Source of the DNA: Lama guanicoe
Lineage: Eukaryota
DNA length: 64,000 bases
Direction: 5' to 3'
Assembly: GCA_013239625.1 (NCBI GenBank)
Contig: MU053487.1
Coordinates: 1,507,058 to 1,571,057 of the forward strand
The position numbers and the translations under genes were made by a program. Below are positions 4,371 through 64,000 of the stretch, one piece after another (position 1 is the stretch's first letter; every line of letters starts with the position of its first letter). The notes beneath the pieces were generated by a model, which worked only from the letters and a program-made list of their open reading frames with translations, had not been told where the DNA came from and searched no databases.

Positions 4371-5636
4371 TTGTTTGCTTGATACTTGGTAACATCAGCT
4401 GTGAATAATTGTGTGGATGATCAGAGCTCTGTTCCATCTTATATATAGTTTTCCCAGAGTGTATTTTGCAAAACCGGGAGATCTTCAGCTAAGCTGCCTT
4501 AAATGAAAGAAAATGATATTTGTATTGTAACACTTTGTGACCTTAGGACTCCCAGAAATCGGGAAAACAGTGGCGCTAATAACTCTGCTATTGTATCAAA
4601 GTGGGCCTTCTGCAGTTTGGCTTTTATCTTGGGTGTGTCCAAAGCCTGTTCTCTCTTCCTGGTTGTGCTGAAAGTGGGGCATGCGAATGTGAGTGACTAT
4701 GTTTATATGTATTTTATTATCAATTACTGTTATTTAAACTGAAGTGGATATTTGGGAACTGGGAAAAAAAAAAACTGAAAATAGCCACGATATTTGGGTT
4801 TGGTATAGCAGAGGAGGAATTTGCGTTTCACTTCCTGTGCCTTTGAGATGTAAATGATCTACCTGGGCTCACGAGGAAAAAAAGGTTTTTTTAAAACTCA
4901 AGCAGGAAAACTGAGATCTCTAGTTCTGTCTGTCTTTATGTAAAAATTAACATGTAAAAGAATTCTATTTAATTGACTTAAAAGTAAGCACTCAAATTAA
5001 ATACTTCTAAGTATAAAAGAAGCTAGATAACAAATTTCAGGCTCATGTGATCTAGGAAATATTCAATACTAAGTTAACATCTGATATGAAAGCTAGTTTA
5101 AGCTTGTTGGTATAATCAACCCAGACATCTTTTACTGTACCTAAGTTTACTGAAGGTCAGTGGGTTTATGTTGTTTCTGTTGCCAAGTTTGTCTGCAGGA
5201 AAAGAAATTTTAGTTTACTTGCTATGATAAAATGCTTATAAGTAAATTAAATGCAAATGGCATAGGAGTTTTTCAGGTGAGCTCTTCAGAAATAATTCTG
5301 AGGAATGTCTACTTAAAAATGATCTCTCCGTACATTTGGTAACTTGAAATTTTAGAGTTGTGCTAACTTAAGTTAAATAATGGACATTTATTATATAGCT
5401 AGATCATTCCCAAACAAAATAAGAAACTGAAATATTTACTAAACATTGGCTTCCCTTTACAGAGAAACTAAAGGTATTTAAGACTATTAAGTATTTTCAC
5501 TGCCACACTGAAATATTTTCTATAAACACATGTTTTTAGAAATTACTGGTATTTATGTTTGCCAATCTACAGAATGCTAATGTAAAAGACAGTTCATAAT
5601 TGCTTACTTCTTGGTTTTCACTAGAAATTAAGGTTT

Positions 5637-5973
5637 ATGTATATATATATATATTTATTGAAGTACAGTCAGTTTACAACGTTGTCAATTTCTGGTACAG
5701 CACGATGCTTCAGCCATACATGAACATACATGTATTCGTTTTCATATTCTTTTTCACCATAAGTTAATACAAGATACGGAATATAGTTCCCTGCACTATA
5801 CAGTATGAATGGATTTTGTGAGAATCCTCCGTATTTCAAAGTGAGAGATACTCTGCCGCCAGCGTTCAGTAGGTGTTCTGTGCGATTCATTGGGTTTGTA
5901 GATGTAATTGTTGGTGTATTTGTGGGAGAGGGTGAACTGTGGGTCTCTCTAAGGTGCCATCTTGACACCTCCT
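5637..5973 (-). mobile_element. Mini-L1: L1 5'UTR start (5973-5810) fused to L1 3'UTR end and tail (5809-5637)
   Basis: Perfect 16-bp TSD ctagaaattaaggttt at 5621-5636 and 5974-5989. Minus strand starts AGGAGGTGTCAAGATGGC (L1 start with YY1 core) and contains ACAGAACACCTACTGAACGCTGGC. The 3' part matches the L1 3'UTR copies at ~8115-8272 and ~55067-55220. Confidence 0.85.
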
Positions 5974-6201
5974 CTAGAAATTAAGGTTTCTAAGAATTGA
6001 AGATTCTAATTATGTATGTCATTAAAGCTATACAAAATAATAAAGGAAACATCAGTATACAGTAGGACAGTAGGATATATATTTTGAGTAAAAAGCATGA
6101 GGAATGAAACTGCTTTTTTTAAGTAAACAGTTTATAGAAGGGGAGACCTAAAGAAATTTTGTGCATGGTCGGGCTCAAATTAGATTTAAACTTAGTTAGT
6201 T

Positions 6202-6348
6202 GGGGGAGGGAGTTACAGCTCAGTGGTAGAGCACATGTTTAACATGCATGAAGCCATGGTTCGATCTCCACTACCTCCGTTAAATGAAATAACAATAAAT
6301 AAATAAACTTAATTACCTTCCCTCCCAAAACAAACAAACAAATAAAAA
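6202..6348 (+). mobile_element. tRNA-derived SINE (camelid Vic-1 type)
   Basis: A box agctcagtggtagagc, B box ggttcgatctcc, AT-rich segment, aattacctt-ccc motif and A-rich tail. TSD aaactta(g/a)ttag at 6188-6199 and 6349-6360. Confidence 0.85.
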
Positions 6349-6965
6349 AAACTTAATTAGGTGAAGGAATTTTGTTATTAAAAGTAGTCTGGTGCAGGAC
6401 CAAATTTGGCTCCTGTCTGTTAACAGAACAGGTTTACTAAGAATGCTTCTGATAACAGATTGTGTGAAACTTTTTGATATTTTTGACAAACTTCTTATCA
6501 AATTCTAATTAAAGTTATTTTGACTTCAACTAAGTTTGGAGTGCTCCGGAGGGCCCCTGAGGCGCCTCAGAGAAAAATATTTTGCTAGTATTGGTTGGCA
6601 TGTTAAAATACTCAGAAAGAATTGTCAAATGAGTGATACGAATGTTATTAATGTAGATATTCCAGAAATTATATAAAGTTTCTGAAATTTAGATATGTCT
6701 TGGTACAATGTTATCAGTCGTAATTCTAGTTGTTATAATAAAATGTATGTCACAGTGACTTGATTAAGCATCTTTGTCAGAAACGCTGTAGTCAGATCTT
6801 TAACCTTGCCTTTTTAAGTCTTTTGTCACTCATAGACAGCTCAACTGATGCTTTGCAAAACTGCTTCATCTTCAAGAAGATTCATAAAAAGAAATTTTTG
6901 ATAAGTACAGGTTTCCTTTAAATCATACTGCTGAACTGGGTAAAATATTCAAAAAGTCTAATGAA

Positions 6966-7087
6966 GTAATAGCTCAGTGGTAGAGTGCCTGCTTAGCAGC
7001 ACGAGGTCCTGGGTTCAGTCCCCAGTTCCTCCATTAAATAAGCAAATAAACTTGATTACCTCCCCCCAAAATAAACAAACAAACAAA
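6966..7087 (+). mobile_element. tRNA-derived SINE (Vic-1 type), slightly 5'-truncated
   Basis: tagctcagtggtagagtg...gggttcagtcccc, with the same tail structure as the copy at 6202. Decayed TSD aaaagtctaatgaa / aaaatctagtgaa. Confidence 0.85.
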
Positions 7088-7659: not shown

Positions 7660-9440
7660 TGATGGGGAAATCTGCACATACTGAGGTATGGGGATGTCGT
7701 TCTGGCTTATACACAGTTTAACTTAATGATCAAAGTGTCCTGTTTTATGACCTTTTTGGGTATGCATTGTACATCTGCTTTTGTCTGGAGGAAGGGGATG
7801 CACTTGAAAATCCAAATGGAGTAGCTGTGATTCAGACATTCAAGATAAAACTATGTGGCCATCGTGGATGTGGTTTCAAACATGTTTTTGTATTGTTGAG
7901 AACTTGAATTTTCTGAGCTGTGTCTTACTCAGGAGACCACCGACCATTCTCAAAGCAATGTCTGCTGGCAGCTGCAACCTTAGGACCTCAAGGTCTCTTC
8001 TTTGAACTGTTAAGTCTTTAGACAATAAAATTGCTTTAGATCAGATGTTAGCCAAAAAAAAACCCACCATGTAATGACCAATAGCTCCTGTTATGTATAT
8101 GTTTTTTAATACATTTTTATTGAAGTATAGTCAGTTTACAGTGTTGTGTCAATTTCTTGTGTACAGCACAATACTTCATTCATATAGGAATATACATATA
8201 TTCATTTTCATATTTTTCACCATAGGTTACTACAAGATATTGGATATAGTTCCCTGTGTTATACACTATGAACTTGTTGTTTATTTATTTTATGTATATT
8301 AGTTAGTATCTGCGAATCTAGAACTCCCATTTTATCCTTTCCCAACCCCTTACCCCAGTAACCATAAGTTTGTTTTCTGTGTCTGAGTCTGTTTTTGTTT
8401 TATAAATAAGTTCATTTTTCTTTTTTTTTTTTTCCTCTCTTTTAAAATTCCACATGTAAGTGATAACATGGTATTTTTCTTTTTCCTTCTGGCTTACTTC
8501 ACTTAGAAAGACTTTCGCCAGGTCCATCCATGTTGCTGCAAGTGGCATTATTTTATTATTTATTATGGCTGAGTGATATTCCATTATATAAATATACCAC
8601 AGCTTTACCCAGTCATCTGTTGGTGGACATTTAGGTTGTTTCCATGTCTTGGCTATTGTAAATAGTGCTGCTACTATAAACATTGGGATGCATGTGTCTT
8701 TTTGAATTAAGGTTCCCTCTGGATATATGCCCAGGAATGGGATTGCTGGATCATAGGGTAAGTCTGTATTCAGTTTTGAGGAATCTCCATACTGATTTCC
8801 ATAGCGGCTGCATCAAATGACATTCCCACCAGCAGTGTAGGAGGGTTCCCTTTTCTCCACACCCTCTCCAACATTTATCATTCATGGANNNNNNNNNNNN
8901 NNNNNNNNNNNNNNNNNNNNNNNNNNNNNNNNNNNNNNNNNNNNNNNNNNNNNNNNNNNNNNNNNNNNNNNNNNNNNNNNNNNNNNNNNNNNNNNNNNNN
9001 NNNNNNNNNNNNNNNNNNNNNNNTTGCTTGTTTAGATCTTCTGCCCATTTTTGGATGGGGTTGTTTGTTTTTATCTTAAGTTGTATGAGCTGTTTATATA
9101 TTCTGGAGATTAAGCCCTGTGAGTCTCATCATTTGCAAATATTTTCTCCCATTCTGTAGATTGTCATTTTGTTTTGCTTATGGTTTCCTTTGCTGTGCAA
9201 AAGCTTTTAAGTTTAATTAGGTCTCATTTGTTAATTTTTGCTTTTATTTCTGTTGCTTGGGTAGACTGCCCTAGGAGAACATTGCTGAGATTTATGTCAG
9301 ATTGTATATGTTAATATCACATCAGAAAGAGGTTAAAACCTGCTTAGATAAAAGTAGACAACTGACTACCTGATACAAGTCTTCCCCAAAGTGCCAGGTT
9401 CGGACTGGCTTTCAGGCTTAGTCTCCTGAATTCCTCAGAG
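7660..9440 (+). mobile_element. Possible LTR after the polypurine tract, split by the L1 at 8104-9302
   Basis: Begins TG directly after the PPT and has LTR-like composition. It does not align by eye with the LTR at 3015-3470. The right boundary is a guess. Confidence 0.3.
8104..9302 (-). mobile_element. 5'-truncated young L1 (ORF2 C-terminus and 3'UTR), spans an N gap
   Basis: ORF 8318-8683 reads MFIVAALFTIAKTWKQPKCP...MEYHSAI...WMDL...LSEVSQ, the L1 ORF2p C-terminus. TSD tgtatatgtt at 8094-8103 and 9303-9312. Confidence 0.93.
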
Positions 9441-55059: not shown

Positions 55060-55562
55060 TTATTTTAATTGAAGTATAGTCAGTTTACAATGTTTTGTCA
55101 ATTTCTGGTGTACAGCATGATGTATCAGTCATACATATGCACACATATATTTGTTTTCATACTTTTTCATTATAGGTCACTACAAGACATTGAATATAGC
55201 TCCCTGTGCTATAAAGTATAATCTTGTTGTTTATCTATTTTATATAGAGTAGTTAGTATCTGCAAATCTCGAACTCCTAATTAATACCTCCGCTGCCCCT
55301 TGTACCCCTATTAACCATAAGTTTGTCTTCTATGTCTGTGAACCTGTTTCTGTCTTGTAAATAAGTTCATTTGTGTCTTTTTTTAAGATTCCGCATGTAA
55401 GTGATATCATATGGTATCTATCTCTTTCTGGCTTACTTCACTTAGTATGACAATCTCTAGGTCCATCCGTGTTGCTGCAAATGGCATTATTTTATCCTTT
55501 TTATGGCTGAGTAGTATTCCATTGTGTGTGTGTGTGTATCACAACTTCTTTATCCAGTCATC
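55060..55562 (-). mobile_element. Young L1 3' end
   Basis: Aligns with 8104-8620 (ttgaagtatagtcagtttaca, gttagtatctgc, tctggcttacttcacttag, ggtccatccgtgttgctgcaa). Confidence 0.92.
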
Positions 55563-62506: not shown

Positions 62507-64000
62507 TTATTTTTTTTAAATTGAGTAATAATTATTTTACAATGTTCTGTCAAATTCCAGTGTAGAGCATAATTTTTCAGTTATACATAAACATACATAT
62601 ATTCATTGTCACTTTTTTTTTATTGTGAGCTACCACAAGATATTGTATATATTTCCCTGTGCTATACAGTATAATCTTGTTCATCTATTCTACATTTTAC
62701 AATCCCAGTCTGTCCCTCCCCATCCCCCTCCCCCTAGGCAACCACAAGTTTGTATTCTATATCTATGAGTCTGTTTCTGTTTTGTATCTATGTTTTGTTT
62801 TGTTTTGTTTTTTAGATTCCACATATGAGCGATCTCATATGGTATTTTTCTTTCTCTTTCTGGCTTACTTCACTTAGAATGACATTCTCCAGGAACATCC
62901 TTGTTGCTGCATATGGTNNNNNNNNNNNNNNNNNNNNNNNNNNNNNNNNNNNNNNNNNNNNNNNNNNNNNNNNNNNNNNNNNNNNNNNNNNNNNNNNNNN
63001 NNNNNNNNNNNNNNNNNNNNNNNNNNNNNNNNNNNNNNNNNNNNNNNNNNNNNNNNNNNNNNNNNNNNNNTTTTGAAGTAGGGTTCCTTCTGGATATATG
63101 CCCAGGAGCAGGATTCCTGGGTCATGTGGTAAGTCTATTCCTAGTCTTTTGAGGAATCTCCATACTGTTTTCCACCGTGGCTTTCCTTGCTTCCCTCTCC
63201 CACTCTTAATGATTTAGGTGTCTTCTTTTACAATTTTGTCTTTATTCTGTTTGGAATTCATGGTAGTTATCACCTTTCCAGGTATGAGTTTCTCATTTTT
63301 GTAGCACCCTGCTTCTTTTTTATGTAGAGTAGACCTGTGAATACTTCTTTTAGCATGGGCTTAGTGTTGCTAAGCTTTTTTAGTTTTTGCTTGTCTGTGA
63401 AGTTCTTTATCTCTCCTTCTATTCTAAAGGATAGCCTTGCTGGATAGAGTATTCTAGGCTGCATCTTCTTTTCATGCAGGACTTTGAATATATCTCACCA
63501 CTCCCTTCTGGCCTGTAGTGTTTGTGTAGAGAAATCAGCTGAGAGCCTTATGGGGGTTCCCTTGTAACTCTTAGTTTTTCTCTTGCAGCCTTTAGGATCA
63601 TTTCTTTATCCTTGACTCTGGCCATCTTGATGATGATATGTCTTGGTGTGGGTCTATTTGGGTTCTTCCTGTTTGGGACCCTCTGAGCCCTCTGTACTTG
63701 GATATCTTATTCCTTCTTTAGGTTTGGGAAGTTTTCAGTCATGATTTCTTCAAATACCTTTTCAATCCCCTTTGTTCTTTCTTCCCCTATTATGCATAGA
63801 TTGGCACACTTTATATTATCCCATAGGTCCCTTATATTGTTTTCATTGTTTTTTATTTGTTTTTCTCTCAGCTATTCTGATTGGGTGCTTTCTGTTGTCC
63901 TGTCTTCTAGGTCACTTATTCATTCCTCTGCATTATCTATCCTGCTTTCTGCAGCTTTTAGGTCAGCTCTCATCTCAGCCAATGAGTTTACTAATTCTAC
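62507..64000 (-). mobile_element. HAL1-like L1: ORF1 remnant and spacer joined to the ORF2 tail and 3'UTR; continues beyond the window
   Basis: ORF 63270-63464 QPRILYPARLSFRIEGEIKNFTDKQKL is the ORF1p C-terminal domain. About 90 bp after its stop the sequence becomes the ORF2 3' tail (63182 downward), homologous to ~8700-8810. Confidence 0.88.

Follow-up and report, generated by a model that had tools for sequence, protein, structure and literature searches.

At positions 5621 to 5989 of the window, the 64,000-nt stretch of Lama guanicoe DNA analyzed here, the two ends of an L1 element lie joined within a single target-site duplication (TSD), raising the question of how an insert with the front and the back of an L1 but neither of its genes arose, and whether it belongs to a family that propagates itself. 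The insert comprises 337 bp on the minus strand between the TSD copies; by alignment, 5973-5810 (164 bp) match L1 5´ ends and 5809-5637 (173 bp) match L1 3´ ends. This arrangement is exactly that given in the initial annotation, and the flanking copies of the 16-bp TSD (CTAGAAATTAAGGTTT) are identical at 16/16 positions (Table 1). If a single mismatch is allowed, the TSD may run on to 5991 and measure 18 bp, and on that reading the target would be TT/AGAA, a site resembling the L1-endonuclease consensus. The insert is all UTR with no ORF, and ORF1, the gene kept by HAL1 elements, is not retained. The poly(A) signal reported earlier is present as AATAAA, followed by a (TA)n-like run rather than a clean poly(A) tail. 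Near the element 5´ end, CAAGATGGC is a candidate YY1-type start motif.

Table 1. Features of the insert and of related L1 copies. Positions are those of the window; the last row gives loci of the genome-wide set.
Feature	Position or loci	Strand	Remarks
TSD, element 3´ side	5621..5636	.	16/16 identity
AATAAA (5654-5659) and decayed AT-rich tail	5637..5659	-	From sequence
Exon 2, distal L1 3´UTR	5660..5809	-	Begins after parental AAG; from alignment
Minor junction form of splice type, joining donor 1 to the second AG	5809..5810	-	6 copies genome-wide
Exon 1, first 164 bp of L1 5´UTR	5810..5973	-	Matches 5´ ends of long L1s, stops at their GT
CAAGATGGC, candidate YY1-type start motif	5956..5964	-	From sequence
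TSD, element 5´ side	5974..5989	.	16/16 identity; possibly 18 bp to 5991, one mismatch
Unspliced acceptor region of neighbouring 5´-truncated L1	8273..8308	-	Context, outside the insert
ORF1-only copies	L152, L153, L160, L167, L173, L176, L179, L187, L188 (G000 loci)		

In public contigs from three organisms the 5´ boundary of the insert runs into unique flank with 0-1 differences, which shows that they share the insertion. None of these contigs spans the junction with 31 bases on each side. The one RNA run among these data also yielded no contig over the junction; no spliced RNA was thus seen, a point against splicing, and the run is uninformative on transcription. A 3-bp GGC duplication at 5853-5858 is private to the window copy among the aligned mini-L1s (minis) and is missing from the contig of organism A, and is thus recent or polymorphic. 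A tRNA-derived SINE was considered and rejected, as Rfam and ARAGORN gave no match within 5621-5989; tRNA-derived SINE heads, 73% alike, lie at 6209-6279 and 6963-7033 (Rfam tRNA E about 2-5e-6).

With an 81-base junction query we obtained 422 candidates, scored 40 of them and fetched 30. All of the fetched loci (30/30) align over the join, 29 of them nearly whole and one (L015) without its first ~58 bases, ruling out a single-copy accident. Three junction forms were observed behind one and the same exon-1 end: form A continues with ATAAACAACAAG and then TT, form B is 3 nt shorter than A, and form C, that of the window copy, is 12 nt shorter. In genome-wide searches with 31-nt junction patterns, allowing up to 3 mismatches, form A accounted for 178 junctions, form B for 63 and form C for 6, at least 247 in total, where the counts are lower bounds and include a few local duplicates; the window junction is the rare form (6/247 pattern matches). 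A comparable pattern detected 235 unspliced 5´ ends in the same genome, and each of the pattern searches returned 0 matches when its pattern was reversed as a control. Exact matches numbered 30 (A) and 18 (B) for minis and 774 (A) and 629 (B) for unspliced 3´ ends, or about 3-4 minis per 100 3´ ends, in a comparison where the pattern lengths differ and the 3´ counts take in related subfamilies. The minis were compared as a set of 92 distinct copies (95 found, 3 with odd junctions left out). Of the 63 copies open to the TSD test, 32 have a TSD, whereas controls in which the flanks were swapped gave 3, 5 and 1 of 63; the window copy lies outside this testable set. The earlier suggestion of a family or of recurrent splicing, which a BLAST-type search was expected to reveal as one junction at many loci with different TSDs, is thus borne out. 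Divergence from the pooled majority is about 6-8% at non-variable sites and pairwise identity is 85%, indicating an old family. Identical mini junctions at G000:C6345:36282, 46561 and 56840, spaced by 10,279 bp, belong to a tandem segmental repeat and are not new insertions.

The parental sequences place both sides of the join at splice signals (a slash marks the junction). A donor pattern that takes in one base beyond the exon, the G being fixed by the pattern, gave 41 matches, 30 of which were fetched; 28/30 loci continue with GT, mostly GTAAGA, and the remaining 2 are minis. At the join the 7-kb parent L1 reads CCG/GTAAGA, and exon 1 of the window copy ends in CCA. The initial annotation had given GTAGG for related L1 5´UTRs at about this point: the GT is indeed there, within a different donor sequence, and AATCCA, which it had suspected to be a CpG-decayed exon end, is a decayed CCG by comparison with the parents. 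On the acceptor side, the parental 3´UTR reads TACTAAC, 12 bases, and TAG/ATAAACAACAAG/TT. Forms A and B begin after the TAG (first AG), and form C begins after the AAG (second AG, 12 nt on), which confirms that the junction at 5809/5810 lies behind an AG; both junction types come directly after AG, with 1 nt of ambiguity. The splice origin proposed earlier is supported by the GT in the parent at the join, the CpG-decayed CCG and the recurrence of the junction with different TSDs.

TACTAAC is exact in 15/30, 10/28, 4/22 and 3/8 unspliced 3´ ends of four groups, and many other 3´ ends carry TACTAAT, which still fits the yUnAy consensus (PMC2367711). The distance from the branch-like A to the exon is 19 nt in 15/15 form-A 3´ ends with exact TACTAAC. 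In 83% of human clones the corresponding distance was 21-34 nt (PMC2367711); the spacing here is shorter and counts against splicing. No pyrimidine tract is present at the parental acceptor, a caveat rightly raised in the initial annotation; the TACTAAC match sits 19 nt before the first acceptor.

To characterize the parent, 60 5´ ends were fetched with 8-9 kb downstream as long L1 copies, several of which are about 7.0 kb. A domain scan of 15 long-copy fragments gave an L1-type match in 9, and one copy (L154) encodes ORF1 domains, an endonuclease (below cut-off) and RVT_1 in order, so the parent is an L1; the ~6.5 kb that is removed includes both ORFs. In L157 and L171, two members of the set of 60 long-copy candidates, the 5´UTR is joined at ~430 to the first acceptor. 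The parents read TCG/GTGAGG at this second donor, with G/GTGAGG in most of the 17 references shown. Five pattern matches (one of them the L157 locus) together with L171 give at least 6 second-donor joins, whose product of ~600 bp is a longer spliced form (L157, L171, L279-L283). The use of two donors and two acceptors in three combinations points to spliceosomal splicing and would be difficult to produce by deletions or template jumps.

Most 5´-intact copies (L093-L112, L149-L188) have lost 0.3-6 kb internally through deletions private to the copy, and 45 junctions in 60 copies is a strikingly high rate. One exact non-GT-AG junction, which leads from about 200 bp past ORF1 to the last codons of ORF2, is common to 9/60 5´-intact copies and defines a ~3.1-kb ORF1-only (HAL1-like) form (Table 1). 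This form is a master-derived non-autonomous family. Since a non-GT-AG deletion recurs to this extent, recurrence alone is no proof of splicing, and it is the splice signals that carry the case.

The insert class is best read as SpIRE-like retrocopies that formed again and again and were mobilised in trans. We give a probability of roughly 0.8 to the reading that the at least 247 retrocopies, in which the first 164 bases of an L1 meet its last ~170-185 bases precisely at GT/AG, the window insert among them, came from spliced L1 RNA acted upon by L1 proteins in trans, and that they are mostly dead ends. The spliceosome would pair CCG/GTAAGA (less often TCG/GTGAGG near +430) with the first AG past the branch site, and rare slippage to the next AG would give form C, as in the window copy. 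The intron removed would be ~6.5 kb with both ORFs, or about 2.8 kb when the source is the ORF1-only form, which could have given rise to some of the minis. The resulting RNA, ~340 nt, capped, polyadenylated and coding for nothing, would be taken up by ORF2p in trans and inserted by TPRT. With an RNA this short, copying would almost always run to the end, while most copies of 7-kb RNAs would be truncated, and this difference may explain why minis reach parity with 5´-intact L1s despite only 3-4 of them per 100 3´ ends. Several source L1s, full-length or ORF1-only, would have yielded minis anew, most of them dead ends with little or no re-transcription.

Processed pseudogenes are spliced Pol II RNAs copied by ORF2p in trans, with a TSD and an A tail. 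The minis resemble them as spliced RNAs copied in trans and flanked by a TSD, but derive from the L1's own transcript, whose many loci have given rise to a single splice form hundreds of times. Human SpIREs, as covered by the available text of Larson et al. 2018 (PMC5860796), are likewise retrocopies of spliced L1 RNA with a common 5´UTR donor, several acceptors and TSDs, arose recurrently from active L1s and, like the minis, are probably dead ends. They account for 131/6,609 full-length L1s (~2%) and are held to be dead ends there; their acceptors, at 620-975, fall within the 5´UTR or into ORF1, and ORF2 is kept (PMC5860796, same parts). In contrast, the minis lose both ORFs in a ~6.5-kb intron and depend on both proteins in trans, and spliced and unspliced 5´ ends occur here at about 1:1 rather than the ~2% in the same text. 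The minis share with SpIREs a GT donor (28/28 unspliced loci), an AG acceptor, TPRT hallmarks and several parental lineages; as ORF2 is not retained, they represent a SpIRE variant outside the described human classes.

Bipartite LINEs without ORFs are assigned to the RTE, Ingi, Vingi and R2 clades only in the available text of Kojima 2018 (PMC5786205), where they are self-amplifying and ascribed to internal deletion. The minis also consist of LINE 5´ and 3´ termini alone, are ORF-less and occur as many dispersed copies, but they belong to the L1 clade and are joined at splice signals, and for them self-amplification lacks support. Similarly to HAL1, they are non-autonomous L1 derivatives retaining both ends, although HAL1 keeps ORF1 and the minis have no ORF (PMC5786205 and PMC13756887, available parts). 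We found no description of an ORF-less spliced L1 family in the literature searched, and Repbase, Dfam, supplements or older papers may hold one. No such family is mentioned in the available portions of the camelid TE survey PMC8605555 or of PMC6726744, PMC3183009, PMC2896524 and PMC13756887, and none appears in the accessible part of a report on a host promoter that brought a SpIRE back to activity (bioRxiv 10.1101/2025.02.02.635956).

The minis are a SpIRE-like class, real and multi-copy and lacking both ORFs, of which the window copy is a rare second-acceptor form. They widen SpIREs from small primate 5´UTR splices to the loss of the whole coding region, and they imply that hundreds of ORF-less L1 RNAs were copied in trans despite cis preference. 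Splicing would offer a concrete route to an L1-clade bipartite ORF-absent element, of which there is none in the accessible part of the 2018 survey (PMC5786205). The ratio of 178+63 to 6 preserves, like a fossil record, how often each acceptor was chosen at a site where the branch sequence is perfect and a pyrimidine tract is lacking. With minis and the ORF1-only form present in one family, comparing the two offers a test of why L1 so seldom gives rise to self-sustaining gene-less parasites.

The initial annotation had suggested that the element could propagate as a SINE-like parasite of L1. That the minis are the L1-clade counterpart of bipartite gene-less LINEs, splice-born and propagated by their own 164-bp Pol II head, seems unlikely to us; if it were true, a SINE-like parasite took as many complete insertions as its parent L1. 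We regard as quite improbable the scenario in which a few splice-born founder minis kept the Pol II promoter and then self-amplified as such a parasite. It would fit the similar numbers of minis and 5´-intact L1s (247 and 235), an abundance far above the ~2% of human SpIREs (available text of PMC5860796), the retained 5´ end and AATAAA, and the precedent of the ORF1-only derivative (9/60) carried in trans by the same machinery; the count, however, would be explained by short length without self-copying. The minis also retain only 164 bp of a 5´UTR that we estimate at about 1.6 kb, and a smaller loss crippled the human L1 promoter (PMC5860796, available text).

Diagnostic sites speak against founders as well. 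When the 92 minis were set against parental ends (65 unspliced 5´, 88 unspliced 3´), neither exon showed a site that is fixed among the minis but missing from the parents, and the strongest differences fall on CpG positions. Form B was rejected as a mini-specific diagnostic deletion, as its 3-nt difference is present in the 629 unspliced L1 ends. One 5´ variant and one 3´ variant are linked in the minis (35/3 vs 14/29, p=2e-8) and, in the same direction, in the parents (12/1 vs 5/6, p=0.02); both parental 5´/3´ haplotypes occur among the minis, and one of the two 5´ types is found in 7/8 ORF1-only copies. Each pairing of at least two haplotypes with three junction forms would call for a founder of its own. 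Form C is not supported as a master-derived subfamily: 0/15 pairs of its 6 copies share three or more rare variants, the copies are spread over both haplotypes, and the shared diagnostic mutations expected earlier as a mark of self-propagation show no private excess among them. In 5/6 form-C copies, on the other hand, exon 1 ends in CA, above even the CpG-decay expectation, a point against recurrent origin.

Some other comparisons also count against recurrent origin. Across all minis, 33 pairs share at least 4 rare variants vs 9.9 +/- 3.0 in shuffles; part of this surplus is parental substructure, and the other part may be misalignment or re-amplification. The minis are also marginally less diverged than the parents (p about 0.04 at both ends). 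In a tree of about 290 sites and little resolution (120 rows, 2 left out for poor alignment), four mini-only pairs have support of at least 0.9, while the larger clades mix minis with parents, and four form-A minis fall in one clade with the full-length L150 (support 0.92). Together, these sequence comparisons support, at the low resolution of the tree, recurrent formation from several L1 lineages. With no fixed diagnostic site, both parental haplotypes among the minis and a mini clade that includes a full-length L1, the SINE-like parasite is unsupported; since a mini re-copied soon after birth would resemble its parent, self-propagation keeps a low probability.

That one or a few masters acquired the join by a DNA deletion or by template jumping of the reverse transcriptase, with splice-like ends by chance, is very improbable: it would accord with the frequent internal deletions (45 junctions in 60 long copies), with the non-GT-AG deletion that founded the recurrent ORF1-only form and with an acceptor lacking a pyrimidine tract, but the three distinct junctions all lie at GT and AG with ends shared combinatorially and only 1 nt of microhomology, the main junction is present on both parental haplotypes, and the other junctions yielded no GT-AG call. 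In this last comparison, a spliced-alignment script called GT-AG in 47/51 form-A minis vs 0/45 other junctions, the latter taken from the 60 long copies, each with three or more references, and including both donor-2 junctions. The script has poor sensitivity near indels and is dependable for form A only, having called 0/35 form B, 3/6 form C and neither donor-2 junction, so that the 0/45 is suggestive only. A first version of this control missed its positive controls (both donor-2 junctions) and is not used as support. Twelve of the other junctions were also inspected by eye, and none is GT-AG.

The neighbouring L1 in the window matches exon 2 with 80% identity over 181 columns and reads AACAACAAG/TTCATA, with the AG at 8273-8274, confirming the AAG reported directly before the retained segment. 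It carries TACTAAC at 8302-8308, a decayed first AG and an intact second AG. The main acceptor of the family is the AG 12 nt upstream (TAG/ATAAAC). In the neighbouring L1 a mutation has turned this TAG into TAA, which hid the main acceptor from the initial annotation. Three 5´-truncated L1 3´ ends akin to exon 2 lie in the window, all on the minus strand, at 8095-9300, 55061-55523 and 62512-63182.
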